Below, in pieces: positions 4,410 to 64,000 of a stretch of DNA of 64,000 nucleotides (positions within the stretch are counted from its first letter, which is position 1; every line of letters begins with the position of its first letter). The notes under the pieces are model-generated. The model had not been told where the DNA came from, did no database searches, and saw only the letters and a program-made list of their open reading frames with translations. The translations under genes and the position numbers were made by a program. The DNA comes from Bacteroidales bacterium (GTDB lineage: Bacteria; Bacteroidota; Bacteroidia; Bacteroidales; UBA4417): contig JADJGZ010000001.1 in the NCBI GenBank assembly GCA_016707785.1, positions 324,484 to 388,483 of the forward strand, in the 5' to 3' direction.

Positions 4410-4429
4410 AAATAATAGGATGATCCTTA

Positions 4430-6507: not shown

Positions 6508-6543
6508 ATTACACTTTTTAATCAAAATACCCGAGGTCGTCTA

Positions 6544-7467: not shown

Positions 7468-7525
7468 AGGTATGTTTTTAGTGTAAGAATGGACATTTAA
7501 CCATTAACTGTCCGGATCAAATCAA

Positions 7526-8883: not shown

Positions 8884-9792
8884 TCATCTCGTTTTGGCTT
8901 TCTTTCCGGGAGCTTGGAGGGTTGGATTCTCAACCATAATATCTTCTGCCAGAACCCAGTATCCTTCTTTAAAAATATAAGCATCATATGTATCTCCAGC
9001 AGGGACATAAAACCTTCCTATTCCTGTCAAACTAGGATCCATTGGTGCCAGTCGGTCCATTACTATCATCCATTCAGGTACTTCCCTGGTTCGACGCCCT
9101 TTCTGAACCATCAATTTCTGGTAATCATACCTTAATAATGCATTTGCATTTTCAGCATACTCAATGAGAACCCTTGATTTTAATCCTTCCTTGGTTTTAA
9201 AAACAGCTTCACCAAGAAAAGGAGTGCCTGAATCATCAAAGCTTAGAATATCAATTATTTTGAAATTTGAGGTCGCATTATGTCCATCCCAACCTAACAG
9301 TGTATAATAGGTTCTATGATTGTAAGACTTTTCGACAAGAGAATAATATATGGCACCATACCATTGATCCAGGGGAATCTTCTCCTTTGGAAATCCGGTA
9401 AGGTTGGATTCTCCTGACTTCATCAAAACGATATTACCCCTTTCTGTCAGCAGAATACCATTATAATGAAAGAATCCTTCTGAAAGTGGAACATTCCAGG
9501 TAAAAAGCCTGAAGCGGGAGTCTTTGTCCTTGAGTTTTGATATTCCTTTCAGCGAATCAAATGGATATTCAAAGGCTCCTTCCGAAGATAGCACAGCCAT
9601 GAGTTTATTTGTCATTTTCTCATTAAGCTGTAGTTTTACAGAGTCACTTTTAGTTTTCCATAGTTGAGTCCCCATTTTCACCAACGTGTCTTCCTGCTGC
9701 TGAAATTCGCCTGGAATCTGAGCCTTTAAAGATTTATGGCCTGAAATAACAAGCAAGAATATGATTAGAATGAAGCTGTTTTTTAAACTCAT
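8884..9792 (-). CDS. Secreted hypothetical protein
   Basis: 302-aa ORF with an N-terminal signal peptide (ILIIFLLVISGHKSLKAQ). I recognise no family. Confidence 0.55.
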   Translation of the reverse strand: MSLKNSFILIIFLLVISGHKSLKAQIPGEFQQQEDTLVKMGTQLWKTKSDSVKLQLNEKMTNKLMAVLSSEGAFEYPFDSLKGISKLKDKDSRFRLFTWNVPLSEGFFHYNGILLTERGNIVLMKSGESNLTGFPKEKIPLDQWYGAIYYSLVEKSYNHRTYYTLLGWDGHNATSNFKIIDILSFDDSGTPFLGEAVFKTKEGLKSRVLIEYAENANALLRYDYQKLMVQKGRRTREVPEWMIVMDRLAPMDPSLTGIGRFYVPAGDTYDAYIFKEGYWVLAEDIMVENPTLQAPGKKAKTR

Positions 9793-16163: not shown

Positions 16164-16377
16164 ATCAGTAGTATTTGTTATTGACACAAAGGTAAAGGTT
16201 ATTTGAATAGCCAAAATGATAACTATTGCTTATACTATTGCCAAATGTTGTAATCTGTTAAGGGTACAATCTGTATCCATGTGGCTAACCAGTTCTAAAG
16301 GAAAATTGCATTGCATTTACAATTAGGTTCTCTGTACGTCCTTCCTTTAATTAATTTTGAAGCTTAAATAAGTTTCT

Positions 16378-40499: not shown

Positions 40500-40937
40500 T
40501 TGAGCAAGATTGTACATATTTCTGAAGCGGCTTCAATAGCTATTCATAGCCTGGCAATCATTGCGTCCAGTCCTGAGATGTTGAATGCAAGGCAGATTGC
40601 AAAGCTGACTGGCTCATCTTCGAACCATCTTTCAAAGGTGATGCAACTCCTGGTAAAAAATGATTATCTAAAATCGACGCGTGGTCCAAATGGAGGATTT
40701 ATTCTCAATAAACCAGCCAACCAGATCACCCTCCTGGAAGTTTATGAATTTATTGAAGGTGAGATAGATTGTAAGTTTTGTGGCATACCCGAGGAAAAAT
40801 GTCCATTTATTAGTTGTGTTTTTGGTCTTAAAGCTGAAATTTTTTCAGAAGAATTTGTTTTATACCTGAAACAGACCATGATATCAGATCTAACAACCAA
40901 ACCAAAAATATATGCTTCGAAAGATCATTCAAATTGA
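40500..40937 (+). CDS. Rrf2-family transcriptional regulator (Fe-S type), copy 2
   Basis: 145-aa ORF with a TTG start. It has the same N-terminal layout as copy 1 (SSSNHLSKVMQLLVKNDYLKSTRGPNGGF) and C-x2-C-x6-C-x4-C. Confidence 0.85.
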   Translation: MSKIVHISEAASIAIHSLAIIASSPEMLNARQIAKLTGSSSNHLSKVMQLLVKNDYLKSTRGPNGGFILNKPANQITLLEVYEFIEGEIDCKFCGIPEEKCPFISCVFGLKAEIFSEEFVLYLKQTMISDLTTKPKIYASKDHSN

Positions 40938-41808
40938 TGAAGAGAAATGCAATGGATGTGGCTTATGCATTCCAAATTGCCATGAAGGTGCCTTACAAAT
41001 TATTGATGGAAAGGCAAGATTAATCAGTGACCTGTTTTGTGATGGATTAGGGGCCTGCATCGGGCATTGTCCTGAAGGTGCCATTGAGATCATTGAAAGG
41101 GAAGCAGAGGCTTACAACGAAACCAAAGTAATGGAGATTATCTCTAAGCAGGGTAGAAATACCATACTTGCCCATCTTGAACATTTAAGAGACCATAAAG
41201 AGTTTGAACTTTTAAAGGAGGCAATCGCCTATATAAAAGAAAATGACATCGATCTTAGTCCGGAAGCTGCTGTTGCCCAAGCCTCAGTAGTTCATAATCT
41301 GCAGGCTGCCATTAAGGAATCCAAATCGTCCCCGATGTGCGGTTGTTCCGGGTCACAACCGATGGATTTCAAGATTGATATGGATAAATTAAACCAATCG
41401 GTTGCTGAAACTACTACTCCTTCTCATGTACCTTCAGAACTAAGGCAATGGCCTGTTCAGCTTCATCTCCTGAACCCCCAGGCTTCTTATTTTCAAAACG
41501 CTGATGTACTTCTGGCCGCAGATTGTGCAGCTTTTGCCATGGGAGATTTCCATGGCACTTTTATGAAAGGAAAAGCATTAGCCATTGCTTGTCCAAAACT
41601 CGACTCCAATAAAGAATCCTATATTGATAAAATTGCTGCCATGATTACCCTGGCAAATATTCAATCCATAACGGTTGTTATGATGGAAGTTCCGTGTTGT
41701 GGCGGACTGCTTCAATTGGTGAAACTAGCTGTTCAAAAAGCCAATGTGACCATACCGGTCCACAAATCTATCATCAGCATTAAAGGTGAGGTCATTAGTT
41801 CTGAATGA
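40912..41808 (+). CDS. 4Fe-4S dicluster ferredoxin-domain protein with Cys-rich C-terminal domain
   Basis: 298-aa ORF with CNGCGLCIPNC and CDGLGACIGHCP motifs, then CGCSGS, CPKLD and VPCCGG. It overlaps the Rrf2-2 stop by 26 nt. Confidence 0.8.
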   Translation: MLRKIIQIDEEKCNGCGLCIPNCHEGALQIIDGKARLISDLFCDGLGACIGHCPEGAIEIIEREAEAYNETKVMEIISKQGRNTILAHLEHLRDHKEFELLKEAIAYIKENDIDLSPEAAVAQASVVHNLQAAIKESKSSPMCGCSGSQPMDFKIDMDKLNQSVAETTTPSHVPSELRQWPVQLHLLNPQASYFQNADVLLAADCAAFAMGDFHGTFMKGKALAIACPKLDSNKESYIDKIAAMITLANIQSITVVMMEVPCCGGLLQLVKLAVQKANVTIPVHKSIISIKGEVISSE

Positions 41809-41820
41809 GTTAAAAGGGCC

Positions 41821-41857
41821 AGCTCCTTTCATTTGCATTGAAAGGAGCTTTTTTTAT
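41821..41857 (+). terminator. Hairpin plus T-run between the Fe-S protein gene and norB
   Basis: agctcctttc / gaaaggagct is a 10-bp stem with a 9-nt loop, followed by a T7 run. Confidence 0.7.
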
Positions 41858-41898
41858 AGTTTTAATTAAGTATTTAAGTACTCATAAATAAACACAAA

Positions 41899-44142
41899 AT
41901 GAAAAACAGAAAACTTTGGTTTGGCTTTATTGCTGTTATGGTAATTTCTTTCGCCGTTCTAGGGTATTATGGAAAGGAAATTTACCGTCAGGCTCCCCCG
42001 ATCCCTGATTTTGTTAAATCAACGGATGGAAAAATTCTCTTTACCGGACAGGATATCAAGGATGGACAAAACATCTGGCAATCAATTGGAGGACAAGAAG
42101 TTGGGACGATATGGGGACATGGATCCTATGTTGCACCAGACTGGTCGGCAGATTGGCTGCACCGGGAAGCAAGTTTCATGCTGGAATCCTATGCATTGAA
42201 TAATGATAGCACCACTTTCTCAGCTTTGGATTTGGAAAAGCAGGCGGCATACAAGGCAAGGCTTCAAAAAGACATTAGGACAAATACTTATGATCCTGAT
42301 AAAAAGGAGTTGACGATTTCGGTGGTTAGAGCTGAAGCAATCAGGCAGGTTAGCGAGCATTACACCGGGCTCTTCATGAGTGACACTTCAAAATCGGCTT
42401 TGAGAGATGCTTATGCAATTCCTGCCAACACCATCAAAACATTGGACAGGATGCAGAAAATGAATGCATTCTTTTTCTGGACATCATGGGCATGTGTCAC
42501 CAACAGGCCAGGCAGTGATATCAGTTATACCAATAACTGGCCGTCAGAAGAGTTGGTAGCAAATACACCTACAAGTTCACTGATACTATGGACAGGTTTC
42601 AGTGTTATCGTATTATTGGCAGGTATTGGATTGCTTGCCTGGTATTATGCCCGGACCCGGGAAGAAGAGGAAATAGAACGATTGACCAGAGACCCATTTT
42701 TAGGTCTGGCCATGACTCCTTCGATGAAAGCCACTCTCAAATATTTCTGGGTAGTGACCGGATTAATCCTTGTTCAGGTCCTGATGGGAATTATAACAGC
42801 ACATTATGGTGTGGAAGGACAAGCTTTCTATGGTTTCCCGCTTTCCGACTTCCTCCCCTATTCCTTATCCAGAACCTGGCATGTTCAGCTGGCAATATTC
42901 TGGATAGCTACTTCATGGTTAGCCACCGGTTTATACCTGGCACCTGCAATTTCGGGGCATGAGCCAAAGTTTCAGAGGTTTGGAGTTAATTTCCTGTTCA
43001 TGGCACTCCTCGTCATTGTTGTTGGATCATTAGCAGGGCAATGGTTTGGAATCATGCAAAAATTAGGACTTGTCTCGAATTTCTACTTTGGTCACCAGGG
43101 ATATGAGTATGTTGACCTGGGAAGGTTCTGGCAGGCATTTCTTTTTATAGGCCTTATTTTATGGTTACTCCTGATGGGTAGAGCCATCTGGCCAGCCATT
43201 ACAAAAAAGGATGAAAACAGGCATTTGCTTACCATGTTCCTGATCGCTTCCATAGCTATTGCTGCTTTTTATGGTGCAGGGCTTATGTGGGGACGACAGA
43301 CCAACCTGGCTATTGCTGAATATTGGAGATGGTGGGTTGTTCACCTATGGGTTGAAGGCTTCTTTGAAGTATTTGCAACAGTTGCCATCGCCTTTCTTTT
43401 TGTCAAATTAAACCTTGTCAGGACTAAGACAGCGACAAGTAATGTTTTATTCTCTACCATTGTTTTTCTTTCAGGAGGTATCATCGGCACCTTCCATCAT
43501 TTGTATTTTACCGGTACTCCAACAGCCATCCTTGCTTTAGGGGCAACATTCAGTGCCCTGGAGGTTGTTCCCCTGGTTCTTTTAGGTTTCGAAGCCCATT
43601 CAACTTTAAAAATTGCAAAATCTGACACCTGGATCAGGAATTATAGGTGGCCGATTTACAGTTTCCTGGCAGTAACATTCTGGAACCTGGTAGGAGCCGG
43701 AATCTTTGGATTTCTGATCAATCCTCCAATTGCCCTCTATTATATGCAGGGGTTGAACACCACCCCGGTGCATGGCCACACGGCATTATTTGGTGTATAC
43801 GGAATGCTGGGAATTGGGCTTATGTTATTTGTCCTTAGAACGATGAACCCTGATGCCACCTGGAAATCAACCTATATCAGGTTTGCATTCTGGTCGATCA
43901 ATATCGGTTTAGCATTGATGGTTCTTCTGAGTGTTTTACCTGTCGGACTTGCTCAAACCTGGGTGAGTGTGAAATACGGTTTATGGTATGCACGTTCTGC
44001 AGAATTCCTTCAGAGTGATATTTTATCAACATTCCGTTGGCTAAGGGTAATCGGAGATACTATATTTGCTCTCGGAACATTATCCCTGGGCTGGTTTATC
44101 ATTGGACTAAAAACCGGCTGGTCAATTGAAAAGAAAAATTAA
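41899..44142 (+). CDS. norB: Quinol-dependent nitric-oxide reductase (qNOR, single-subunit NorB/NorZ type)
   Basis: 747-aa ORF. The N-terminal extension EIYRQAPPIP...GQNIWQSIGGQEVGTIWGHGSYVAPDWSADWLHRE is followed by a 12-TM heme-copper-oxidase-like core with conserved His residues. Confidence 0.92.
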   Translation: MKNRKLWFGFIAVMVISFAVLGYYGKEIYRQAPPIPDFVKSTDGKILFTGQDIKDGQNIWQSIGGQEVGTIWGHGSYVAPDWSADWLHREASFMLESYALNNDSTTFSALDLEKQAAYKARLQKDIRTNTYDPDKKELTISVVRAEAIRQVSEHYTGLFMSDTSKSALRDAYAIPANTIKTLDRMQKMNAFFFWTSWACVTNRPGSDISYTNNWPSEELVANTPTSSLILWTGFSVIVLLAGIGLLAWYYARTREEEEIERLTRDPFLGLAMTPSMKATLKYFWVVTGLILVQVLMGIITAHYGVEGQAFYGFPLSDFLPYSLSRTWHVQLAIFWIATSWLATGLYLAPAISGHEPKFQRFGVNFLFMALLVIVVGSLAGQWFGIMQKLGLVSNFYFGHQGYEYVDLGRFWQAFLFIGLILWLLLMGRAIWPAITKKDENRHLLTMFLIASIAIAAFYGAGLMWGRQTNLAIAEYWRWWVVHLWVEGFFEVFATVAIAFLFVKLNLVRTKTATSNVLFSTIVFLSGGIIGTFHHLYFTGTPTAILALGATFSALEVVPLVLLGFEAHSTLKIAKSDTWIRNYRWPIYSFLAVTFWNLVGAGIFGFLINPPIALYYMQGLNTTPVHGHTALFGVYGMLGIGLMLFVLRTMNPDATWKSTYIRFAFWSINIGLALMVLLSVLPVGLAQTWVSVKYGLWYARSAEFLQSDILSTFRWLRVIGDTIFALGTLSLGWFIIGLKTGWSIEKKN

Positions 44143-44161
44143 TCCATTTAAACATAAAACT

Positions 44162-44503
44162 ATGGAACCCAATGTATTTGAAACCGGAAAAACTTTTAGT
44201 TTTTCAGAAAAAGTTGACTACTCTGCCGGAGGGATTGTAAGCAAAAAAGTCATCCAGAAAGAAAATGGGAATGTCACCTTATTTGCTTTTGATGAAGGGC
44301 AAAAGCTAAGTGAACATACTGCTCCGTTTGATGCCCTGGTGCAGGTACTGGATGGTGAAGCTGAAATAGTGATCAATGGAAATCCCAATCTGCTCAAGGC
44401 TGGTCAGAGCATTATTATGCCGGGCGGTATTCCACATGCTGTTAATGCCATCAAACCTTTTAAGATGTTACTTATCATGATCAGGAATCTGCCAGCAGTT
44501 TAA
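44162..44503 (+). CDS. Cupin-domain protein
   Basis: The track ORF starts at a TTG (44126) overlapping norB. The ATG at 44162 (MEPNVF...) is more plausible. Cupin motifs present: LSEHTAPFDALVQVLDGE...GGIPHAV. Confidence 0.72.
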   Translation: MEPNVFETGKTFSFSEKVDYSAGGIVSKKVIQKENGNVTLFAFDEGQKLSEHTAPFDALVQVLDGEAEIVINGNPNLLKAGQSIIMPGGIPHAVNAIKPFKMLLIMIRNLPAV

Positions 44504-45438: not shown

Positions 45439-46248
45439 ATGGAGAAAGCTAAAGAAATATTTGAAAAGTTGTGGCAGGATTATATCATTCAAAACCCTGA
45501 AGCTAAGCAAGTTTATGATGCTTTTGTTGCAGAAGGAGAGATCGTTGAGAATGATCATATTGCATTCCGCACATTTTATCATCCTCATATTAATGTGGAT
45601 GTTCTGTCCCGTCCGTTCCTGCTGGCCGGATACGTTCAGAAAGGCTACTACGTTTTTGAAGATAAACACCTGACGGCCAAGCATTATGAACACCCTGACT
45701 GGGCAGAAGCTCCAAGGGTTTTTATCAGTCAGCTGATGACTGAACATTTCAGCCCGGAACTTCAGCAGGTGGTGAGTGGAATTATTGCCCGATTACCTGA
45801 ATCTCTATATTTCAGTAATGAGGTGATCTATGCAGGCGATGTATGGGGTATGCCTTCCTATTCAACTTATGAGATGTTGAGAAAGGAGTCGGAATATGCA
45901 GCATGGTTGTATGTTTACGGATTCAGGGTAAATCATTTTACCGTCAGTATCAATCATTTAAAAAAGCTGAATACCATTGAAATTGTGAATCAATTTCTGA
46001 ATGACAAAGGATTTCTCCTGAATGAATCCGGAGGACGTGTAAAAGGCACCCCTGCTGAACTTCTTGAACAGTCGAGCACAAAAGCCGGTATACTTCCGAT
46101 CCAATTCATTGAAGGGATTTATCATATCCCTTCCTGTTATTATGAATTTGCCCGCAGGTACCCGGATACAGATGGCGAGCTTTACTCCGGTTTTATCGCA
46201 AAATCAGCGGATAAAATCTTTGAAAGCACCGATTTCTACAAAAAGTAA
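45439..46248 (+). CDS. DUF1338 family protein (HglS-like 2-oxoadipate dioxygenase/decarboxylase family)
   Basis: 269-aa ORF with N-terminal LWQDYI..NP and the DHIAFRTF metal-site context typical of DUF1338/YdcJ/HglS. Confidence 0.78.
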   Translation: MEKAKEIFEKLWQDYIIQNPEAKQVYDAFVAEGEIVENDHIAFRTFYHPHINVDVLSRPFLLAGYVQKGYYVFEDKHLTAKHYEHPDWAEAPRVFISQLMTEHFSPELQQVVSGIIARLPESLYFSNEVIYAGDVWGMPSYSTYEMLRKESEYAAWLYVYGFRVNHFTVSINHLKKLNTIEIVNQFLNDKGFLLNESGGRVKGTPAELLEQSSTKAGILPIQFIEGIYHIPSCYYEFARRYPDTDGELYSGFIAKSADKIFESTDFYKK

Positions 46249-51032: not shown

Positions 51033-52865
51033 TTAGTTAAATTCAACAATTTCAGGTTTTCCGGTTTCAAACTCTTTTAAACCGAAGTCTCTTGTGTTAA
51101 ATGTGTTCATTTTGATCACATTATTTCCCTGCGAGGGTATAACAGGATAATATGATAGTGATATCTGCAAGAAACTGGCATTCAGGAAATCGTTTTTGAT
51201 AAGCACTCCTATTCCAAGGTGCGTATAAATCTTACTGCCCCTGAAACTCCCATTGGCATCCGACATCATACCTAAACTACCAAGCAGGTATGGGCCAAAC
51301 CTGAAGCCGATGACACTCCATGGGGCATAGGATTGCGTCTGGAAGGTAAGGATACACTTAGCAGTGCTCATTTGTGCTTCCAGGTCAAATCCACTGCTTC
51401 CCATATAGGAATTAAAGGAAGTCGATTCCAATGGCAAACGATTGAAGCCCATTACGAATTCTGATTTTACAAACTGCCTGAATTTCCAATTTCCTATCTT
51501 CCTGAGTTTTGTGAAATAGGTACTTCCTGCAAGAAGGCTTCCCTCCTGCCGCTTGAGTCCGGTATAAAATGTACCTAGTTCGAACCTGAATGCCAGGTAG
51601 CCAAAATTGTAATAATCAGCCCAAAGACTTTTATACCCAAGGTAGTATGAAACCACTGAATTCCTGTTCCTGATCCCGGCCAATACGGTATATGACCTTC
51701 CAATCGGGATATCTTCGATGAAACCATACCGAAAGAGAAACCGGTCCTGAATATACTTCCTGGAATTAAGGCTTATACCAAGCAGATAAAGGGATTCATC
51801 AGCATATCTGAATGAAGTATCGATTGTTTCTGAAGGTTTTTCAAAGAATCGTTTTTTTATCCATCGGTTGGAAAGTATCAGATGTGTATTTCTTTCCACT
51901 TCGGATGTGCCCCGGAAAACAGGAATTGAATTTCCCACCCAATAGTCCTGAGTGTTAAAGCGATAATCCTGAAGGAATTTGCCTGAAGTCAGTAAAAGGG
52001 AATCCCTTCCGTATTTCTGCTCCAAAGAAAGTCCACCGGCCCATTGTGTATAGGTTGAATAAAATGGACGGTCGATATGAAGGTATTTATTATAACCCCC
52101 ATTTTCTGATTGAGAATACCGAAGCTGTGCACTTATAAAGGTATTATACACATTAGGTATCTGGTATCCAACATCATACCAGGTTCTGAATATATCGAGG
52201 TTTCTCATTTGTTCCACCCTGAGTTGGTGACCTGATCCCAGGAAATTCTGTTCTTTAAGCGAAAGAGATAGTTGATTCCCGGAAAGGGCTCCATCAGGAA
52301 CAATACTCCAGACATCCTGAATTTTGAGCAGGACATTAATGGAATCGTTTACTACTGCCAGCTCCATATATACCTCTCTGACATAAGACTGTTTACGCAG
52401 CAGTCGCAATGACTCCATAACTGACAAGGAATCGAAGGCCTGGTGCCGTCTGAAAAGGAGTAAGTTCTTTACAGCAAGAGGCAAAGTCTTCACATGCAAA
52501 TAATTACCGGTTTTAGCTACCCTATCTACAGGTTTTCCGGCAGAATCTGATACCCTGTAACCAAATGGATCCAATACTTCAACCCGGACTGAACGGATGA
52601 TTTTATTTTCACATTCCAGGTATGCTGGAGTTAGGCTACTGTTATCATGCCCTTCAATTCTATCCTGTAATTCAGCAGGGGCCGATTTAAAAAAAACAGG
52701 ATAGATCAATCTTGTCAATCCTCTTTTGTTCGAATAATTCTGAATCTTTCTATATACCCTGCTACTATCTTTCCAGTCGAAACCCACTGAATCCTGACCA
52801 GTTACCGAAAGGTGCATAATTAATGCACAAAGGAATGCGAGTATCCTTCCGGGTTTTATTATCAT
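51033..52865 (-). CDS. Omp85/BamA-like outer-membrane protein (tentative)
   Basis: 610-aa ORF with a signal peptide, a POTRA-like N-terminal region and a C-terminal two thirds with beta-barrel strand periodicity ending ...EIVEFN. It lies downstream of PorP/SprF. Confidence 0.45.
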   Translation of the reverse strand: MIIKPGRILAFLCALIMHLSVTGQDSVGFDWKDSSRVYRKIQNYSNKRGLTRLIYPVFFKSAPAELQDRIEGHDNSSLTPAYLECENKIIRSVRVEVLDPFGYRVSDSAGKPVDRVAKTGNYLHVKTLPLAVKNLLLFRRHQAFDSLSVMESLRLLRKQSYVREVYMELAVVNDSINVLLKIQDVWSIVPDGALSGNQLSLSLKEQNFLGSGHQLRVEQMRNLDIFRTWYDVGYQIPNVYNTFISAQLRYSQSENGGYNKYLHIDRPFYSTYTQWAGGLSLEQKYGRDSLLLTSGKFLQDYRFNTQDYWVGNSIPVFRGTSEVERNTHLILSNRWIKKRFFEKPSETIDTSFRYADESLYLLGISLNSRKYIQDRFLFRYGFIEDIPIGRSYTVLAGIRNRNSVVSYYLGYKSLWADYYNFGYLAFRFELGTFYTGLKRQEGSLLAGSTYFTKLRKIGNWKFRQFVKSEFVMGFNRLPLESTSFNSYMGSSGFDLEAQMSTAKCILTFQTQSYAPWSVIGFRFGPYLLGSLGMMSDANGSFRGSKIYTHLGIGVLIKNDFLNASFLQISLSYYPVIPSQGNNVIKMNTFNTRDFGLKEFETGKPEIVEFN

Positions 52866-53047: not shown

Positions 53048-54040
53048 TTAGAAGCTGGGACATTTCAGTTCCCTGATATGGAAATTTTTCTTAGGTGCAT
53101 TAAACAGGTATGTAACAGAGAATTCATGAGCTCCGCCTGATTGAACACCTAGCCTGGAAATAGTATAATCAAAACTGTAACCTAATTTGAATTGTTTTTG
53201 CTGGAATCCTAGTAATACGATGACAGCATCTGAAGTTTCAATATTGTTCCTGAACCAAAGGCCGCCTACAAAAGGATACATATTTACTGACATCCCTAAA
53301 TTCAGTTGATGGAATTTACCTTGTTGGAAGTAAACAACATTTGGTGAAAGGGAGAAATTACGAAGATCTTCTCCTTCCATACCCTGAACAAAATCGAACA
53401 ATGCACCGGCATGAATGGTGAGTCTGTAGTCCATTCTTAGGGTATTGTTTCCGTAAAATGACATTTCCGGCTTGTTAAGGTGATCAACAGCCAGACCAAA
53501 ATACAAGCTTTCTTTATATCCAGCCAAAAATCCTGCTGAAAGGTCGATATCACCATAATTAGGTCTGCTGGGTGCAGTTTCGGATGTTTGTTTAAGCACA
53601 CCGGTGTTAACATTGATTTGATCACCAAAAACGAACTTATCCCAATTTAAGCGGTACTGGGTATAACCAACCTTGAAAGCTGCATTGAAAACAAGACTTC
53701 TGGATGCTTGCAAGCGATAGGAATAAATTCCGCTTCCGCTGAAAATATTATAAGCTCCACCTGCAGCCACTGTTGAGGTAGCCATCAAACCAACACCACC
53801 TGAAACAGATTCAAGGTGATCATCATAAGTAGCACTATAGGTAACATAGCCATCACTAATGGTAGGCCATTGATTGCGAAAGTTAAGGGTAAGACGCGGA
53901 CAAAGTTTTGCTCCTGCAAGAGCTGGATTCAAATAAAGAGGATTGGCATAAAACTGGGAAAACGCAACATCCTGACTAAAAGACCTTATTGAGGCAGCCA
54001 GAAGTATGAAAAGAAAAAAGATGTTCGTTTTTGATTGCAT
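53048..54040 (-). CDS. PorP/SprF-family type IX secretion system membrane protein
   Basis: 330-aa ORF with a signal peptide, then the hallmark FSQFYANPLYLNPALAG. It lies downstream of a gene with a type-B sorting domain. Confidence 0.9.
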   Translation of the reverse strand: MQSKTNIFFLFILLAASIRSFSQDVAFSQFYANPLYLNPALAGAKLCPRLTLNFRNQWPTISDGYVTYSATYDDHLESVSGGVGLMATSTVAAGGAYNIFSGSGIYSYRLQASRSLVFNAAFKVGYTQYRLNWDKFVFGDQINVNTGVLKQTSETAPSRPNYGDIDLSAGFLAGYKESLYFGLAVDHLNKPEMSFYGNNTLRMDYRLTIHAGALFDFVQGMEGEDLRNFSLSPNVVYFQQGKFHQLNLGMSVNMYPFVGGLWFRNNIETSDAVIVLLGFQQKQFKLGYSFDYTISRLGVQSGGAHEFSVTYLFNAPKKNFHIRELKCPSF

Positions 54041-54417: not shown

Positions 54418-57400
54418 TTATTTCATGAGCATCACAACACCGCGGAGTGGCGATTCCTGTTCCATTTGATAATATGGTGGAACACTAAAGTAAACCAACC
54501 AGGTATAAAGGTCAGTCTGACAAGGTTGGCCATTAAAGGTTCCATCCCATCCCTGTTTGATATCATCAGATTCAAATATCTGTTGTCCCCATTTATTAAA
54601 GACAATCATCTTGTATGTAAATTCAATATCCAGATTTGTATAAGCAAGGAAAACATCATTCAATCCATCGCCATTAGGTGTGAAAGCACTCGGTACTTCG
54701 ATTCTTGATAGCTGCCGGCTACCTACACTAATCCAGGCAGTATCATCGGTCATGCAGCCATTTTTGTCGATAATAAAAATGGAATAGAATCCCTGGTCTG
54801 ACTCCCTGACATGATCAATTGTCAGAGAATTGCCATGAGTAGTAGCATTACCCGGACTCTTCCAAGAAATGTCCACAGGGTTACCGGTCCAGATCATTCC
54901 CAATGAGTTCCAGTGGATCACCGGCTTCCAGCATCTTATCCCCAATAATCTCAACAGTAGCAGGTCTTATAACATTCACCTGTCCAGCCTCAAACTGAAC
55001 ATTGATCTGGTGATGATCCTGATTAAAGAAGATGTTATATCCTGGTATTGAATCATCAAGATCCACATGACATTTTCCAGGTTCATTGGTTTTGAAAATA
55101 AGCCTGATCAGTTGTCCACTATCAGCAATGGAAGCAGGAGTGCTTTGAGTCCACTGAATGGAAACCCTGCCACTCAATGAATCGGCTTTTACTGACAAGG
55201 CATCTTTAATGTCAGGATCAGCATAGTTGAATCCTTCACAATTCATGATTTCCGGATCATATTTCAGATTCAGTCCGAAGGAAACAATGTCCTTGAAACC
55301 ATATACCATAATGGGTAATTCGACATAATCTCCGAGACAGGCTGCCACATCTTCTGCCATTAGCTTCCCGGCATCAGGAACATTTATTGTTACTTCATCC
55401 GTACAGAAATTTGAATCCACCACGGTAAAGGTTTGGACACCCGGAGATACAAAGAACTGGCCAGTTCCAACATATGGTGGCAATCCGCCATTTGCAGTAA
55501 CAGTTATCTCTGCAGAGCCGCCAATGAGTTGAACGGCTGTGGTAATTTCAGCAATGGCTTCCAGGCGTTCAGGTTCCAGAATCCGGAAAAGAGTATCGAT
55601 CTCACAACCTGCATGATCAATTAGATGGAGTTGGTACCAGCCTGCACCCAGGCTATCTATTCCATTATTACCTTCGATGCCATTCCAACTGTACTCGTAA
55701 GGTGCAATACCTCCTGAAACAGCTAATTGAATCGAACCTGCCTTATCACCGAAGCATAAATTATGTGTTAATGCAGCCTGGAAAATAAGCAATGAATCCG
55801 GCTGTGTCAGAACGATTGAATCTGTATCAATGCAGCCATTGATATCAGAAACTACAACAATATAGGTAGAAGCTACCAAACCGACAGCGCGGGCAGTATG
55901 CTGATTTGCCGGATCATTCCATGAATAGGTAATTGGTGCAACTCCACCTTCAACAATAGCTTCTGCATAACCATCATTCCCTCCATGACAACTTATTCCT
56001 GAAGTTTTCATTTCAGTGATCCGTGGTCCTGCAAGATCTTGTATTACAATTGGTTCATGATCCCGGAATTCACAGTAGGAATCTTTGATCCAGAGCTGGT
56101 AAGTTCCCGGATCCAAGTTGAGGAATGCACTGTCAGATGTCCAACTAACTCCATTGTCGATGCTGAACTGCAGGGTTCCGGTTCCGGTGGCTGAGATTTG
56201 GATGCTGCCGTTCGATTGTCCGCAGGTGGCATCAGTTGCAGTGACGGCCAGAATCTGCGGGCCACCCAGGCTGTTGATGATTACAGGGTTATTCAGATAA
56301 GGTGTTTCACAGAAATCATCCTTTACCTTAATAGTATAGGTTCCGGCTGATAAATTCGTAAACAGGCTGTCGGATGACCAGCTTGTTCCATTGTCGATGC
56401 TGAACTGCAGGGTTCCGGTTCCGGTGGCTGAGATTTGGATACTGCCGTTTGATTGTCCGCAGGTGGCATCAGTAGCAGTGACGGCCAGAATCTGCGGGCC
56501 ACCCAGGCTGTTGATGATTACCGGGTTATTCAGGTAAGGTGTTTCACAGAAGTCATCCTTTACTTTTATATTATAGGTACCGGCTGACAGATTCGTAAAC
56601 AGGCTGTCGGATGACCAGCTTGTTCCATTGTCGATGCTGAACTGCAGGGTTCCGGTTCCGGTGGCAGAGATATGGATGCTGCCGTTCGATTGTCCGCAGG
56701 TGGCATCAGTAGCAGTGACGGCCAGAATCTGCGGGCCACCCAGGCTGTTGATGATTACCGGGTTATTCAGGTATGGTGTTTCGCAGAAGTCATCCTTTAC
56801 CTTAATAGTATAGGTACCGGCTGATAGATTCGTAAACAGGCTGTCGGATGACCAGCTTGTTCCATTGTCGATGCTGAACTGCAGGGTTCCGGTTCCGGTG
56901 GCAGAGATATGGATACTGCCGTTCGATTGTCCGCAGGTGGCATCAGTAGCAGTGACGGCCAGAATCTGCGGGCCACCCAGGCTGTTGATGATTACAGGGT
57001 TATTCAGGTAAGGTGTTTCGCAGAAATCATCTTTTACCTTAATAGTATAGGAGCCGGCTGACAGATTCGTAAACAGGCTGTCGGATGACCAGCTTGTTCC
57101 ATTGTCGATGCTGAACTGCAGGGTTCCGGTTCCGGTGGCGCTGATCTTGATACTTCCGTTTGATTGTCCGCAGGTGGCATCAGTAGCAGTGACGGCCAGA
57201 ATCTGCGGGCCACCCAGGCTATTGATAATGACAGGGTTATTCAGATAAGGTGTTTCGCAGAAGTCATCCTTTACCTTAATAGTATAGGTACCGGCTGACA
57301 GATTCGTAAACAGGCTGTCGGATGACCAGCTTGTTCCATTGTCGATGCTGAACTGCAGGGTTCCGGTTCCGGTGGCTGAGATTTGGATACTGCCGTTCGA

Positions 57401-58977
57401 TTGTCCGCAAGTTGCATCTGTAGCATTGACGGCCAGAATCTGCGGGCCACCCAGGCTGTTGATGATTACCGGGTTATTCAGATATGGTGTTTCGCAGAAG
57501 TCATCCTTTACCTTAATAGTATAGGTGCCGGCTGATAAATTCGTAAACAGGCTGTCGGATGACCAGCTTGTTCCATTGTCGATGCTGAACTGCAGGGTTC
57601 CGGTTCCGGTGGCGAGATTTGGATGCTGCCGTTCGATTGTCCGCAGGTGGCATCAGTAGCAGTGACGGCCAGAATCTGCGGGCCACCCAGGCTGTTGATA
57701 ATTACAGGGTTATTCAGATAAGGTGTTTCGCAGAAGTCATCCTTTACCTTAATAGTGTAGCTTCCGGCTGATAAATTCGTAAACAGGCTGTCGGATGACC
57801 AGCTTGTTCCATTGTCGATGCTGAACTGCAGGGTTCCGGTTCCGGTGGCAGAGATTTGGATACTGCCGTTTGATTGTCCGCAGGTGGCATCAGTAGCAGT
57901 GACGGCCAGAATCTGCGGGCCACCCAGGCTGTTGATGATTACCGGGTTATTCAGGTAAGGCGTTTCGCAGAAGTCATCCTTTACCTTAATAGTATAGGTG
58001 CCGGCTGATAGATTCGTAAACAGGCTGTCGGATGACCAGCTTGTTCCATTGTCGATGCTGAACTGCAGGGTTCCGGTTCCGGTGGCTGAGATTTGGATAC
58101 TGCCGTTCGATTGTCCGCAGGTGGCATCAGTTGCAGTGACGGCCAGAATCTGCGGGCCACCCAGGCTGTTGATGATTACCGGGTTATTCAGGTAAGGTGT
58201 TTCGCAGAAGTCATCCTTTACCTTTATATTATAGGTACCGGCTGACAGATTCGTAAACAGGCTGTCGGTTGACCAGCTTGTTCCATTGTCGATGCTGAAC
58301 TGCAGGGTTCCGGTTCCGGTGGCTGAGATTTGGATGCTGCCGTTTGATTGTCCGCAGGTGGCATCTATTGCCTGAACGGATAAGATTGAAAGATTATCGA
58401 TAGTAACTTCCAGTGATGAAGTTGAGGGGATACATGCGTTAGAGTTCCCATTGCCATAGGCTGTTAGTGTAAGAATGACTGTTCCTTGAAGTATATCATC
58501 CGGACCAGCAAAATATTCGGGATTAAGCAGGCTTGAATCACTGAAATAGCCGTCTCCATTGCTACTCCAGACTAAATAACTGTAATCGGATGCCTGGGCA
58601 CCGGTAACAGAAACCTGTAAAGTATTGCACAATATGAATCCAGGGCCTGCATCAGCAAAAGGCTGAGCAAATACTTCAATAGTACCTAATTCCATGACTG
58701 CATCACAATCATTTGCTGAATGTTGTATGCAAGAAAGCTGATAAAGTCCTGCAGTGACATTCCATTCAATTTCAACTGTGTCGGCGGTACTTAGAAGTAT
58801 ATTTTGAGTGCCTGAAGGATCTTCGATCTTCCAGGTATAAGTTGCATTTGGTTCACCATCGATCCTGTAATGGCGAACGGCTCCAATACATACCTTGTCG
58901 ATACTATACTGGCTGAATGATTGGAGTCCAATCACCAACAGTATAGCGAACAATATGTATCTGAGCACTTTATGCAT
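54418..58977 (-). pseudogene. Giant repeat adhesin (about 1520 aa) with T9SS type-B sorting domain, interrupted by two frameshifts as assembled
   Basis: Three collinear reading-frame pieces: 58977-57508 (signal peptide plus repeats), a Met-free open frame continuing into 56116-54881, and 54954-54418. It contains SprB-type Cys repeats (CHGGNDGYAEAIVEGG, CFGDKAGSIQLAVSGG) and a cohesin-like segment. The C-terminal type-B domain reads VPSAFTPNGDGLNDVF...WGQQIFES...GWDG. Confidence 0.8.
56151..58380 (-). repeat. Tandem array of ten 237-bp (79-aa) near-identical coding repeats
   Basis: The anchor ccattgtcgatgctgaactgcagg recurs at 56151, 56388, 56625, 56862, 57099, 57336, 57573, 57809, 58046 and 58283. 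Confidence 0.95.
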
Positions 58978-58982
58978 TTCTA

Positions 58983-59639
58983 TCAGTATTGATATATATG
59001 TGAACTCACAGGGCGAGGTTTAACCATAAGTTCGACCGGCAGTGTGGGTACGTTATTGGTTCCGTTAGCATCACTTACTTCAAGTACCTGGTAAGATGTT
59101 GTTACCGAAGGATTCAAAGGAATGATGAAAGGGCTGGAAGTTATATCAGAGTATGTTTGAGATGTGGTTCCATCGAACAGCGTCACAGACCAGGGGCCTT
59201 CGCCGGTTAACTGGATATTAAGTGCAGAGGTATCTCCTGTACAGATGGGTTCAGGTTGTGCAATAACTGCAGTTGGAAGAGATTCAAGTACTGTCATTTT
59301 ACCCACTTTCAGGTTCATTGTACATCCGGCCCGTGAGGCAGTTACTTTGTAGAAGTATGTACCCGGAATGAGCCAGGTAACACTTACATCAGGGCCAGTT
59401 GAGACACCATTTAAGAAGAAAGCTTCAGAATTCGGACAATTTCCGGGAGTATTGGCGAGGTTAATTCCATCGACCTCATTATAGAGTTCCCAGGAATAGG
59501 TATCACCTGGAACGGCAATCACAGAAAGGTTATAAGTCTGACCAGCTGACACAGATACCTGGGCCATGGCAGAAGCCATAGTCATTACCAGTATTCCTAC
59601 CAGTAATAATCGGTACCCTATGTGTTTAAACTGTGTCAT
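58983..59639 (-). CDS. Secreted two-module Ig-like protein (adhesin-locus accessory)
   Basis: 218-aa ORF with a signal peptide ending AMAQ. The module pattern (DTYSWELY...VSVTW..PGTYFYKV...GC) is shared with the N-terminus of the adhesin. Its stop lies 5 nt before the adhesin ATG. Confidence 0.6.
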   Translation of the reverse strand: MTQFKHIGYRLLLVGILVMTMASAMAQVSVSAGQTYNLSVIAVPGDTYSWELYNEVDGINLANTPGNCPNSEAFFLNGVSTGPDVSVTWLIPGTYFYKVTASRAGCTMNLKVGKMTVLESLPTAVIAQPEPICTGDTSALNIQLTGEGPWSVTLFDGTTSQTYSDITSSPFIIPLNPSVTTSYQVLEVSDANGTNNVPTLPVELMVKPRPVSSHIYQY

Positions 59640-60595: not shown

Positions 60596-61684
60596 TTATG
60601 GCTTAACCGGTAAGAAAGGTGTTGGTGTAACAGCCTGTACATCCGGTCTTGGAGTGATCGTTTGGTAGGCGATATCATTGGTAAAGCCATCAACCACCAG
60701 GTTTGGACAAGGAGGTGAATTGGGGCCATTATCATGATGAACGTCACCTAATGGAGGAGTAGCTGACAGCATTGTAATACCATCGACAGCAACTGCAACC
60801 TGCTCAGCAGTAAGTCCTTCGTAATTGCTGGCACCATTTGAATGGTCGATGATGATGCGAATAAAGATGGATTCCCCTGCTGCACCAATGGTAGTTCCTG
60901 TGCCAGGTACAACGGGATCAACAGAAGTATAAACACCTGCTGCCAAAGTCATTGCATGAGTTGCAGCAAAAGAGGTAGCGGAAGACCATACTACTTCTGA
61001 AACTGTTTCTTCAGGATCTAAACCGGCAATGGTGATGCTGGGTAACCAAGACACAGACCAGTTAGCAGCAGACACTTCATAATAGAGTGTATCTGCACCG
61101 AAATCATATATAACTCCTTCAGGTGCTGTTGCATCATAATCAGCACTTACAATGTCGGAGATACAACGGTCGATGTTTGTTCCGTAACCCGGCTGAAGCA
61201 CTTTACTTGCATTAAGGTTAGCAATATCAAGGGTGAAAGCATTGATAGGCTGGATCTTGTAAACCTTCATATTATTAGGGCTACAGGTGCCATTATCATT
61301 CACCACATTGATGATTACGAATACAGGGTTTGCCGGATCGTAGGTAAAACTGTTCCAGGTAAGTGAAATTGAGTTACCATCAACTGTTCCTACGTTATAA
61401 TTGGCACCTGCTGCTGCCAGGAATGCACTGGTACCGGGAACTTCCGGGGTGGCAACCAGTACTTTATTTGTGATAAAAGTCTGGTCTTGTGTAACTCTCC
61501 ATAAATAGGTCTTAGTACCCGGAGGGGTGGGAACATTCACTTCATAAGTGTAAGGTGTACCTGCAATAGGATGCAGAGCATCAGCGGGAAGACAGGTGAT
61601 CGTTCTTGGAGCTAACTGAGCCATGGATGTAGAGATACCTATGGCCAGGAAAGCTGCCAACATTAATAAAAGTTGCTTTTTCAT
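60596..61684 (-). CDS. Secreted Ala/Thr/Gly-rich protein of unknown family (adhesin-locus accessory)
   Basis: 362-aa ORF with a signal peptide ending SMAQ. Ig-like module cues: TYLWRV...ISLTWNSF. Confidence 0.6.
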   Translation of the reverse strand: MKKQLLLMLAAFLAIGISTSMAQLAPRTITCLPADALHPIAGTPYTYEVNVPTPPGTKTYLWRVTQDQTFITNKVLVATPEVPGTSAFLAAAGANYNVGTVDGNSISLTWNSFTYDPANPVFVIINVVNDNGTCSPNNMKVYKIQPINAFTLDIANLNASKVLQPGYGTNIDRCISDIVSADYDATAPEGVIYDFGADTLYYEVSAANWSVSWLPSITIAGLDPEETVSEVVWSSATSFAATHAMTLAAGVYTSVDPVVPGTGTTIGAAGESIFIRIIIDHSNGASNYEGLTAEQVAVAVDGITMLSATPPLGDVHHDNGPNSPPCPNLVVDGFTNDIAYQTITPRPDVQAVTPTPFLPVKP

Positions 61685-61851: not shown

Positions 61852-64000
61852 TTATTGTTTAATTACGTTTGGACGAGGAGTTATGGTTATATTGACTTCA
61901 TAAATTGCAGATGCATTTCCATTGCAGTCCACCACCTGGTAGCTGATTTTATGGATCAGGTTACCGGTTAATATTCCCGGGAACTGAATATCACTGCTGT
62001 AGGTGGATGGTTGTCCGGTGAAATACAATGAGGGTAAAGCAGGGAGGATACTTCCATCAGCAAAATCGATGTGCCAGCGGATTTCCGGAGTACAACCCAG
62101 GCTGCAGTTATCGGTAATAGCGGAAATATCCAGGTCAAAAGTTGTACTTCCTGCTATAAATGTGTAATACTCAGGTCGATCTGGCTGAATATCCATGGTT
62201 GGGTCATAATAAACTGCTGTATTAATCGACTCAACGCAGAAACTAAAGGGTCCCGGCAATACAAATGCAGGTGGCTGATCATCAACTACTGTTATTGTTT
62301 GGTAGCATGTATCAGAACCTGAGATATTGGAAGCAATCCAACGAATCGTGGTTGTACCCAGGTTAAAGGTATAGGGGTTTGGAAGAATCGGAATCCCGGT
62401 ACCGGAGCCTGTTGTTGCCCCAGACATTTGCCATTGCCAGCTTACAGGTAAAGCCCCGGAATTGAGAGCAGGTATCCCTGGATCTAATGAAGCTATGCAT
62501 AAACCGGATTGTGTATTCTGCAAAATATCAGCCGGACAGGTGATATCAGGAGGGTCGTTAGGTGTAATTGTTACAGTAAAGCTGCAGTATGATGAATTTC
62601 CACATAAGTCGGTCACAGTATAGCTTACGGTCGTTGTTCCAACATTGAACTGGTAGGGTGACGGAATAAAACCGGTCCCTGCCCCCGTTGAAGGTGCTGA
62701 CAGGCTCCATGAAAAGATCAATGAATCTGCAACAGAACAATTATCGGCAGCTGAAGGAGCTGATAAAGAAACGTTGGCAAATTCTTCTCCCGGTTCAGCA
62801 GGAAGTGTTACAGATGCAGGGCAAGACAATGCGGGAGGATTAATATCTTCAACCAGAATTTCTTCCTGGCAAATTGCATTACAGCCATTAACATCAGTTG
62901 TCATTAATGTCAGCAGGAATGTTTCATCACAGAGGTCACCTGCAGTGACACTTACTACCTGAGCATTAAATGGACCAGTAATAGCACCATTTCCTGAGAT
63001 CGACCAGGCATAATTGCTCATTGCTGCCTGTCCTGAATATTGATTTCCGGAAGTCCCGGGACAAACCGGGCTGGAACCACTGATGATACAAGTGGGCAGG
63101 GAATTGATCGTGATGGTATGACTTACATTCTGAGTTTGGGAACAGCCATTATCTGAACTGATTGAAACGATGGTATAAATATATGTCCCGGGCATATTAG
63201 TGGGAACTGACAGTTCCACTGATGAACCAAATGTTGTGGTGATGGATTGCTGTGCACCACCATTGATGGTATAAAGGAAAGTATAAGGTGCTGTCCCATC
63301 TGTTCCTGTGAAAGTAAGGATCGGGGAAATGGAATACAGACAAGCAGAAGTGGGTCCTGTGATAGATGCTGAAGGTAATGGATAGACAATAATATCAATG
63401 GAATCGGTAAGTGGAGGACAGCCATAACCATCAGATACAGAAAGATAATACCTTCCGCTGCCATTCGTTGTAATCCCATTGATTACAGGATCTTTCAGAG
63501 TGGAGGTAAATCCTCCCGGACCTGTCCATGAGTAGGAAACCGGGGGCTTTCCACCTGTCAGGTTTGCAAACAGTTGAACGTTTTCACCTTCACAGAATAT
63601 ACCATCTCCACTACAAGTAGGGTCAGTAGAAAATGGGATTGGGGCCAGGGTTCCAAACGAGATATCATCAATACCAAAATCGTTTCCGTTTGCTGATGTA
63701 TTGAGGTCAAGAATTTCAATTATAGCAGTGGTTGAAGCCCCTGAATTCCAGGTACCATAGAATCTATCCTTGAGCAGCCAGGGATTATTGAGTATATTTT
63801 GTCCAGCGGTTAGAAAAGCAGTAGTTCCAACCTGAGTACCATTTACTGAGAATCTAAGTTCAGCATAGGGAGATACATTATTCAAGCTGATGGCCCAGGC
63901 AGAAAAGTAATAATCTGTATTCGGAAGGACAGTTACTGTTTCTCTCCAAACAAAGGGCTGAGGAGCATATTTAGCTCCGTTAACAATAAGGAAATTGGCA
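61852..64000 (-). CDS. Large HYR/Ig-repeat surface protein, 5' end outside window
   Basis: The frame stays open from the track start (a TTG at 63885) up to nt 63999. It has at least three HYR-like modules (P.L.CP...DNC...GTTTVSYTV.D..GN...C.F.V.I) and a jelly-roll-like segment ending GNDFGIDDISF. I recognise no T9SS C-terminal domain at its C-terminus. Confidence 0.8.
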   Translation of the reverse strand, partial: ANFLIVNGAKYAPQPFVWRETVTVLPNTDYYFSAWAISLNNVSPYAELRFSVNGTQVGTTAFLTAGQNILNNPWLLKDRFYGTWNSGASTTAIIEILDLNTSANGNDFGIDDISFGTLAPIPFSTDPTCSGDGIFCEGENVQLFANLTGGKPPVSYSWTGPGGFTSTLKDPVINGITTNGSGRYYLSVSDGYGCPPLTDSIDIIVYPLPSASITGPTSACLYSISPILTFTGTDGTAPYTFLYTINGGAQQSITTTFGSSVELSVPTNMPGTYIYTIVSISSDNGCSQTQNVSHTITINSLPTCIISGSSPVCPGTSGNQYSGQAAMSNYAWSISGNGAITGPFNAQVVSVTAGDLCDETFLLTLMTTDVNGCNAICQEEILVEDINPPALSCPASVTLPAEPGEEFANVSLSAPSAADNCSVADSLIFSWSLSAPSTGAGTGFIPSPYQFNVGTTTVSYTVTDLCGNSSYCSFTVTITPNDPPDITCPADILQNTQSGLCIASLDPGIPALNSGALPVSWQWQMSGATTGSGTGIPILPNPYTFNLGTTTIRWIASNISGSDTCYQTITVVDDQPPAFVLPGPFSFCVESINTAVYYDPTMDIQPDRPEYYTFIAGSTTFDLDISAITDNCSLGCTPEIRWHIDFADGSILPALPSLYFTGQPSTYSSDIQFPGILTGNLIHKISYQVVDCNGNASAIYEVNITITPRPNVIKQ

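Follow-up and report, generated by a model that had tools for sequence, protein, structure and literature searches.

In Flavobacterium johnsoniae, SprB and the other type-B CTD proteins combine a PF13585/TIGR04131 C-terminal domain (CTD) with an adjacent PorP/SprF gene, and binding of SprB to SprF, like that of PG1035 to PorP, has been reported (PMC9143113). SprB itself (669 kDa; PMC9143113) has a long, highly repetitive extracellular region made of SprB-type, Cys-framed Ig-like repeats. The gene described here, which lies in a 64,000-nucleotide stretch of a Bacteroidota metagenome-assembled genome (MAG; this stretch is called the window below), codes for the same type of CTD, has the same kind of neighbour and contains a comparable repetitive region. 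In contrast to SprB, its product is far smaller (1519 aa), has a distinct head that belongs to no Pfam family, contains nine units that are near-identical at the DNA level, comes with no evidence linking it to motility and is disrupted in the assembly.

Similar folded domains, mostly Ig-like, are also arranged in tandem between a distal N-terminal head and a surface anchor in the Periscope Proteins and fibrillar adhesins, such as SasG/Aap, Rib/alpha-C, Esp, CdrA and Sgo_0707 (Whelan et al. 2021, PMC8201768). In these proteins as in ours, the high identity of the repeats in DNA promotes recombination within the gene and gain or loss of copies, and a unit length divisible by 3 preserves the frame; the window repeats are long and highly identical, and each is predicted to be a folded domain. 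The differences lie in the anchor, which would here be a T9SS type-B CTD bound to PorP instead of a sortase/LPXTG or T1SS anchor, and in the host, an environmental Bacteroidota MAG, Bacteroidetes being unmentioned in the main text of PMC8201768. Moreover, the counts of 10, 11 and 12 units, from imperfect assemblies, are no more than a hint that the length varies between strains.

The best structural match to the model of two units was the grappling-hook protein GhpA of Aureispira (PDB 9flw, 9flu and others; TMq 0.5-0.56), a Bacteroidota surface-filament protein that also consists of Ig-like domains in a row. GhpA is far larger, and with 15-21% sequence identity the likeness is one of fold and not of family. 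The array belongs to a known kind, and nothing in it is surprising to a specialist. Very probably it provides the stalk for a surface protein that is T9SS type-B cargo and belongs with the fibrillar adhesins or 'Periscope' proteins, which would extend the idea of variable-length 'Periscope' proteins to T9SS type-B cargo. By analogy with the described systems, the protein would be displayed at the cell surface, with a rod-like stalk and an adhesin function.

Gene architecture and secretion setting

The preliminary description of this DNA placed the repeats in a T9SS type-B gene, and the profile searches bear this out: the CTD scored 47.7 bits against PF13585 (CHU_C; cut-off 27, E=1.7e-12) and 49.8 bits against TIGR04131 (cut-off 35, E=2.9e-13), and a PorP/SprF-family gene adjoins. 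The features of the locus are as follows (window coordinates).

54418-58977, minus strand: whole adhesin-like surface-protein gene, 1519 aa once two frameshifts are repaired
58909-58977, minus strand: predicted Sec signal peptide MHKVLRYILFAILLVIGLQSFSQ, hydrophobic, read from the sequence and kept in the relatives L001 and L003
58366-58908, minus strand: N-terminal non-repeat head (aa 24-204), with the conserved module QYSIDKVC...RHYRIDG
56231-58362, minus strand: array units 1-9, 237 bp and 79 aa each, except unit 4 (236 bp)
55994-56230, minus strand: unit 10, a hybrid, its first 81 nt like units 1-9 and the remainder like an old, diverged terminal unit
55361-55993, minus strand: diverged SprB-type repeats, ~78 aa each, Cys-framed (PF13573, 83.2 bits, 4 stretches)
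54487-54702, minus strand: T9SS type-B C-terminal sorting domain (CHU_C / Bac_Flav_CTERM), aa 1426-1497 of 1519
53048-54040, minus strand: PorP/SprF-family outer-membrane protein gene, directly downstream (TIGR03519, 207.3 bits, cut-off 90.55, E=3.4e-61)

The protein thus runs from the leader through a head of ~180 aa, 10 stalk domains, the diverged SprB repeats, a further, unassigned region and an Ig domain to the type-B CTD. The order of the cargo gene and its PorP/SprF neighbour is syntenic in L001, a MAG 97.5% identical to the window which is, with L002, a close relative, and in L003 (Bacteroidetes bacterium Cfx3-02 MAG, JACAAZ010000001.1). As for SprB and SprF, the CTD would be recognised by the T9SS and the protein then held at the surface by the PorP/SprF protein of the adjoining gene. 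Among genome contigs, a scan with PorP identified one relative only, L003 (62% identity).

L003 carries, at positions 4500-9566, an intact, colinear and syntenic ortholog in one ORF of 1688 aa, with the same locus order and the same succession of leader, head, 79-80-aa units, SprB repeats, Ig domain and type-B CTD. Its 12 units are diverged, being 46-88% identical to each other, whereas those of the window are near-identical (95-100%) and the gene is broken. Compared by length (1688 aa) and by number of matched stretches (12), P0062 agrees with this ortholog. The head region (aa 24-204) matched no entry in Pfam or NCBIfam and is 55% identical in L003; a homolog search with it returned a single short, uninformative match. 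A metagenome scan with the head domain identified 40 loci of 37-55% identity in which it is joined to differing repeat stalks; as all are at 55% or below, these 40 loci include no same-species array beyond those compared here.

Elsewhere in the window, two ORFs of 677 aa (14181-16214 and 61852-63885) were considered as a duplicated element; they are unrelated to each other, one resembling M1 peptidases and the other being an HYR/PKD protein.

The tandem array and its unit

The 24-nt anchor CCATTGTCGATGCTGAACTGCAGG occurs, exactly as first described, at ten positions (56151, 56388, 56625, 56862, 57099, 57336, 57573, 57809, 58046 and 58283), with 0 expected from 100 shuffles, and the minus strand codes for the 79-aa unit that had been quoted. 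TRF delimited the array to 56150-58365, with a period of 237 bp, 9.4 copies and 95% matches. The spacing of 237 bp with one interval of 236 bp was confirmed; in contrast, the array could not be called in frame throughout, since the 1-bp deletion breaks the frame as assembled. The former count of ten units and a diverged half-unit also needs correction. Nine units are full and near-identical (92.4-97.9% at the nucleotide level, mean 95.1%, and 95-100% at the amino acid level), and the tenth is a hybrid, which makes that count ~0.65 unit too high. Compared with the consensus, the first 81 nt of unit 10 are 98.8% identical and the remaining 156 nt ~40%. Judging from this pattern, unit 10 appears to be the site of a conversion or crossover boundary. 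The terminal unit of L001 shows only 4 nt differences from unit 10, and the terminal unit of the L003 array is likewise the odd one out.

As had been noticed, non-synonymous changes recur at the same codons of the unit: codon 11 varies between Q, K and H, codon 43 between T and S, reached via two different nucleotide paths, and codon 45 between T and N. In addition, the array keeps 33 variable sites that are unit-specific.

We then considered the nature of the unit. The AF2 model of two units is all-beta, with a pLDDT of 93.1, and Foldseek returned tandem Ig-like domains as its closest folds; a PDB sequence search with the unit gave insignificant cadherin matches only. The unit shows a conserved Cys pair, an Asp-box-like SIDNGxSW hairpin and an NLxAGxYxIKVKD strand, and the two cysteines (C3 and C53) are kept in every unit and almost invariant across homologs. 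At E<=1e-3, 9495 representative proteins match it, many with 10-59 matched stretches, so that its multi-repeat relatives number in the thousands. On this model, each 237-bp unit is predicted to be one complete 79-aa Ig-like beta-sandwich domain of the SprB-repeat type, a very common kind, and it conforms to the Cys-framed Ig-like domains of ~75-80 aa found in tandem in large Bacteroidota surface proteins. Comparison with Pfam gave a divided answer: two units scored 27.7 bits against SprB (PF13573), with a cut-off of 28, and 30.5 bits against Y_Y_Y, and PF13573 is present in 38 of the 56 closest database matches to the unit. The Pfam SprB model spans only the first 37 of the 79 unit residues, and the ~79-aa domain is under-described by it. 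The unit had been presented as an enlarged relative of the SprB repeats; this view has to be abandoned, since the downstream SprB-type repeats and the ortholog units share a period of 78-80 aa and the Pfam model merely covers the first part of it.

Two frameshifts in the assembled gene

As assembled, the gene consists of three reading-frame segments (58977-57511, 57652-54884 and 54966-54421, from a three-frame analysis), a disruption by two frameshifts that had been overlooked in the preliminary description. The positions concerned are the following.

57613-57614, minus strand: frameshift 1, one base missing in unit 4 (unit nt 39), at the sole 236-bp interval
57508-57510, minus strand: premature stop reached after frameshift 1, which ends a 489-aa ORF
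54895-54905, minus strand: frameshift 2, CATTGGGAATG in the window and CATAGGAATG in L001 and L002, net +1

Frameshift 1 reads TCTC^GCC where the other units have TCTC[A/T]GCC, a site that is polymorphic among units. The ORF track shows only 3.3 copies of the repeat because this frameshift leads to the stop at 57510-57508, and not, as first proposed, because the unit contains no Met; the absence of any in-frame ATG, GTG or TTG from the repeat stretch until the TTG at 56116 explains why the remainder of the array is not listed as a separate ORF before that point. A three-way alignment places frameshift 2 where the Ig domain begins, upstream of the CTD, and repair of this frameshift yields LELIGMIWTGNPV, which matches LELSTMVWTGNPV of L003. 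Lying near 54900, this second frameshift would cut the secretion domain off from the gene; the type-B CTD is out of frame with the gene start in the assembly. Compared with L003 the frame is thus interrupted twice, and compared with L001 and L002 once. The product as assembled would be limited to 489 aa and devoid of the CTD (an exact look-up of these 489 aa gave no match), and with both frameshifts the organism may fail to make the protein altogether. Phase variation and programmed frameshifting were rejected as unsupported: the two sites are neither simple-sequence tracts nor known slippery motifs, and the relatives are intact there.

All that is said here of copy number, unit order and the two frameshifts comes from one assembly, and we regard a very recent inactivation or variant allele and a residual assembly error as roughly equally probable. 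The chances are evenly balanced that the gene is truly inactive in the strain, both the 1-bp deletion in unit 4 and the +1 before the CTD being real, which would leave the array as a decaying relic. A comparison with two relatives over ~20 kb revealed only four indels private to the window, two of them intergenic and two in the adhesin gene. The other window genes that were checked match near-whole Pfam profiles, the only partial match being at 45439-46248. Nine ORFs that adjoin or overlap others and have a Pfam match are separate genes, 8 of which span essentially the whole profile. Homopolymer deletions are many in L001, unlike in the window. Since the window is otherwise free of coding indels, two indels in one gene look non-random. 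Frameshift 2, furthermore, sits in unique sequence 1.1 kb outside the array and combines a substitution with an insertion, which is no plain homopolymer slip and does not favour an assembly error. However, the relaxed constraint of a pseudogene was not seen: in the middle region, the window branch has ~10 synonymous and ~1 non-synonymous changes, and pairwise dN/dS between strains in the unique regions of the gene is 0.03-0.13 (0.46 in the N-terminal region, a value based on only 14 changes). Any inactivation would therefore be very recent, and two independent frameshifts of this kind are unlikely. The intact state of L001 and L002 at the site of frameshift 2, and of the L003 ortholog throughout, also speaks against a pseudogene.

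This strong purifying selection argues instead for a functional gene, and it is nearly as probable that the frameshifts, and possibly the copy number, the unit order and part of the homogeneity, are artefacts of metagenomic assembly or polishing. The missing base of frameshift 1 falls exactly on an inter-unit variable site, as if conflicting reads had misled the consensus caller. The array is hard to assemble, since that of L001, the only close relative that spans it, contains junk, namely a foreign insert of 35 bp and a unit made up of garbage; L002 stops short of the array. At homologous loci there are 207-267-bp arrays, and several of their short-read contigs terminate inside them. Against an artefact, the 33 unit-specific sites imply that assembly did not just merge the units into one consensus, and a count near 10 is plausible because the L003 ortholog independently has about 12 units. 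The mosaic sharing of variants described below could partly arise from polishing with multi-mapped reads. Such arrays break short-read contigs and draw errors in long-read MAGs, which is why this gene is seen in three pieces and annotation would get it wrong.

Origin of the near-identity and copy number

The array is probably ancestral, since the syntenic ortholog carries 12 diverged units. Comparison of the units suggests that, with purifying selection at work, intragenic recombination or gene conversion homogenised it in the window lineage. Unequal crossover or gene conversion would have made units 1-9 alike, together with the first third of unit 10, the terminal unit having escaped; with a unit of 79 codons, gain or loss of copies would keep the frame and alter the stalk length only. 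In a four-gamete test, all four combinations were present in 41 of 78 informative site pairs, variants being mosaic among units. Within the array, pS is 0.162 and pN 0.013 (pN/pS 0.08), values which point to purifying selection on the units. The locus would thus be a clean example of concerted evolution in a surface-protein stalk from an uncultured Bacteroidota lineage, with the conversion boundary visible.

Recent expansion or gene conversion had been put forward from the start. The diverged ortholog units, the mosaic site pairs and the unit-10 boundary do fit recombination or conversion, and 'recent' holds in a relative sense only, since pS among units (0.16) is about twice the synonymous divergence between the two strains (0.07-0.09). 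A recent de novo amplification, in which the array was first reduced to one or two units and duplication then rebuilt it, seems unlikely to us. It would account for the nine units being about equally similar, and one unequal crossover could have left hybrid unit 10 as its junction; however, it has to accommodate a synonymous divergence that is higher among units than between strains, an ortholog that keeps a similar unit number, and a sharing of variants that is mosaic and not nested, for which repeated exchange is needed. Amplification and gradual conversion are not sharply separable, and the biology is the same either way.

The suggestion that copy number is hypervariable is weakly supported by the counts of 10 anchors in the window, 11 units in L001 and 12 in the more distant ortholog of L003, the 11-unit array containing obvious assembly junk; the contig, metagenome and homolog searches yielded no further same-species sequence. 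Units of the window and L001 gave no clean pairing, marker units being in a different order, and positional orthology is not resolvable because minimum distances overlap those within the array and L001 is error-ridden. It is improbable that both frameshifts, which are of opposite sign, are real and that the differing unit order at 97.5% identity reflects a T9SS 'Periscope' adhesin in rapid population-level turnover. Were this true, intragenic recombination would reorder the stalk domains and raise or lower their number, the gene would be off in some cells or strains, and variable-length surface proteins, possibly with on/off variation, would extend to environmental T9SS type-B cargo. Near-identical units are also found in P0059, which has 16 of them, each of 80 aa.

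Anatomy of the array and its reading frame

The main corrections to the preliminary description of this repeat array (56040-58380) are a composition of nine units and a hybrid tenth, a unit domain of normal size, a probably ancestral origin of the array and two frameshifts in the assembly. The ten positions reported for the anchor, a 24-nt string marking the units, were all exact (none is expected in shuffled sequence), and Tandem Repeats Finder returned a single array at 56150-58365 (period 237, 9.4 copies, 95% matches, indels absent from the summary). Divided at each ATCGQSNGS motif, the minus strand gave ten units of 79 codons, numbered in that direction. Units 1 to 9 (58362-56231) differ pairwise at 5-18 of 237 nt (identity 92.4-97.9%, mean 95.1%); 24 of their 33 variable nucleotide sites lie at third codon positions, and the encoded sequence varies at only five residues. 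Unit 10 (56230-55994), a hybrid, carries the anchor because its first 81 nt match the consensus (98.8% identity, compared with ~40% for the other 156 nt). The array is made of nine near-identical units and the first third of a tenth, and not of ten units and a further half-unit as previously proposed. The recurrent substitutions were confirmed at codon 11 (Q/K/H), codon 43 (T/S, reached through two distinct base changes) and codon 45 (T/N); the same three codons are variable in L001, the closest relative, and in the diverged ortholog (L003).

The sole 236-bp interval arises in unit 4, which has lost one base between 57614 and 57613 (TCTC^GCC in the window, TCTC[A/T]GCC in the other units). As a result, the ORF starting at ATG 58977 loses frame and, after 489 aa, ends in a stop at 57510-57508. 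The true frame stays open from 57652 to 54884 (923 codons) and appears as a listed ORF only from a TTG at 56116, since the units have no in-frame ATG, GTG or TTG. It is this frameshift, and not the absence of Met that had been held responsible, that limits the ORF track to 3.3 copies. A second frameshift is found at ~54895-54905, outside the region first described, where the window has CATTGGGAATG and both close relatives, L001 and L002, have CATAGGAATG. Because of it, the middle of the gene is read in a different frame from the Ig domain and from the T9SS type-B C-terminal sorting domain; past it, the original frame resumes through both domains (54966-54421). When both sites were repaired, we obtained a 1519-aa protein colinear with the intact 1688-aa ortholog of L003, and at site 2 LELIGMIWTGNPV aligned to LELSTMVWTGNPV of that ortholog. 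The gene (54418..58977, minus strand) is thus disrupted twice in the window assembly, which had been missed.

The unit domain and its host protein

The features, from the N-terminus of the repaired protein to the next gene downstream, are as follows.

Hydrophobic leader, at the N-terminus
N-terminal region of ~180 aa, after the leader and before the units; no Pfam or NCBIfam family
Ten units, the repeat array
Diverged SprB repeats, after the ten units (PF13573, 83 bits)
Region without assigned family, between the SprB repeats and the Ig_3 match
Ig_3, a weak match before the sorting domain
T9SS type-B sorting domain, C-terminal (PF13585, 47.7 bits, cut-off 27; TIGR04131, 49.8, cut-off 35)
53048-54040, PorP/SprF-family gene, next downstream of the adhesin gene (TIGR03519, 207 bits)

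Against Pfam, two units scored just under the threshold for SprB (27.7 bits, threshold 28), a model of only 37 residues, and just over that for Y_Y_Y (30.5, threshold 26.6). An Asp-box-like motif, S-I-D-N-G-T-S-W, present at aa 23-30 of every unit (56231-58362) within the Ig-like domain, accounts for the weak BNR, PSII_BNR, Sortilin and Y_Y_Y matches. Leaving out a sister-MAG fragment, the closest database proteins are at most 48% identical to the unit, and PF13573 is present in 38 of 56 database matches; membership of the Pfam SprB family is borderline by score and supported by homology. The unit had been regarded as an enlarged relative of the SprB repeats, but the downstream SprB repeats of the gene and the units of the L003 ortholog share its period of 78-80 aa, which points to a SprB-type domain of normal size. 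At E<=1e-3, an exhaustive search with the unit retrieved 9495 representative proteins; many have 10-59 copies and are 1000-7500 aa long. The AlphaFold model of two units (input alignment of 56 sequences) is confident (pLDDT 93.1) and all-beta, and Foldseek matched it in the PDB to tandem Ig-like domains, with the best TM-scores (0.5-0.56) for the Aureispira grappling-hook protein GhpA.

Judged from its sequence, the repaired protein appears to possess the features that define type-B cargo. Two such cargo proteins, SprB and PG1035, bind a cognate PorP-like protein, which has been proposed as the surface anchor (PMC9143113); by analogy, the T9SS would export the protein studied here, and the neighbouring PorP/SprF protein would then hold it. 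Functionally and architecturally it would be a 'Periscope'-type surface protein, resembling Periscope proteins in its fibrillar, variable-length type (PMC8201768) and SprB in its SprB-type domains and T9SS type-B delivery route (PMC9143113). Length variation from strain to strain is only suggested.

The head (aa 24-204; QYSIDKVC...RHYRIDG) has homologs of 37-55% identity in metagenome loci L004-L043, joined to quite different stalks, with unit lengths of ~65-89 aa and protein sizes from 600 to >2300 aa. These combinations suggest a modular head-plus-stalk family, the head of which has no Pfam entry.

History of the array and status of the frameshifts

Three relatives gave useful information. 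L001, from the 'Bacteroidales bacterium' MAG GCA_016708515.1, shares 97.5% identity with the window, and its array has 11 units, ten with anchors and one without. Within this array, the stretch at 6880-7630 contains a 35-bp foreign insert with a 9-bp duplication either side (AAAAGAGCAAAACATAGAATGTTACA plus duplicated ATCAGCCGG) and about one unit of low-quality, garbage sequence, followed by more 1-bp deletions in the next unit; many homopolymer deletions are found outside the array. L001 thus mainly shows how difficult the array is to assemble. The short-read contig L002, also 97.5% identical, ends before the array. L003 (MAG Cfx3-02) has the same gene order, a PorP 62% identical and an ortholog that is intact and contains 12 units; these are 46-88% identical among themselves, 51-68% to window units 1-9 and less (38-47%) to unit 10.

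These 12 diverged units in a syntenic ortholog argue that the array is ancestral and that the near-identity of its units probably reflects homogenisation in the window lineage. Repeated intragenic exchange is supported by the presence of all four allele combinations at 41 of 78 informative site pairs (units 1-9), by the homogenisation boundary inside unit 10, by the position of the diverged unit, which is the terminal one in both species, and by the marker units (K variant, N-boundary), whose order differs between the window and L001 and which show no clean orthology by position. The expansion or conversion had been called recent. This holds only when the split from L003 is the reference, since pS among units (0.162) is about twice the between-strain synonymous divergence (0.07-0.09). 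Within the array pN/pS is 0.08, indicating purifying selection on the unit domains. Homogenised arrays of this domain type recur elsewhere: P0059, a 1245-aa metagenomic protein fragment, has 16 almost identical 80-aa units with sub-blocks of identical copies. Head-domain homologs carry arrays of 207-267-bp units (74-99% identity), and several of their contigs end within the array.

Whether the frameshifts truly inactivate the gene or are artefacts is, in our estimation, close to an even call. In a comparison of ~20 kb with L001 and L002, only four indels were private to the window, two intergenic and two in the adhesin gene, and site 2 lies in unique sequence; none of ten other window ORFs scanned against Pfam resembles a split-gene fragment (eight matched approximately whole profiles, one matched a family partially and one had no match). 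These observations favour real inactivation. An artefact would better fit the strong constraint that the gene shows along the window branch (in the middle region, ~10 synonymous changes for 1 non-synonymous) and the pairwise dN/dS of 0.03-0.13; moreover, the base missing from unit 4 coincides exactly with a position that is polymorphic among units, and the sister assembly L001 is visibly corrupted within the array. The interpretation as a stalk array is the same in both cases.

Neighbouring and other genes of the window

Upstream, 58983-59639 (minus strand) encodes an intact 218-aa secreted Ig-like protein with weak Ig_7/PKD matches. In its L001 counterpart (4129-4784), a single deletion in a C-run, at the equivalent of window 59196, breaks the ORF into pieces of 151 and 67 aa; L003 keeps the gene as a 214-aa ORF. 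Two minus-strand ORFs without Pfam family, 51033-52865 (610 aa) and 60596-61684 (362 aa), flank the adhesin-PorP pair; L003 has both at the corresponding positions (609 and 372 aa), and they may be part of the same surface-protein locus.

Two further minus-strand ORFs, 14181-16214 and 61852-63885, both start at TTG and encode exactly 677 aa, yet they are unrelated: the former resembles M1 metallopeptidases and the latter covers the C-terminal portion of a large HYR/PKD protein, the rest of which lies past the window edge. On the plus strand, a four-gene cluster (40500-44503) encodes a Rrf2-family regulator, a 4Fe-4S protein, a NorB-like nitric-oxide reductase (cytochrome-c-like domain and COX1) and a cupin protein.
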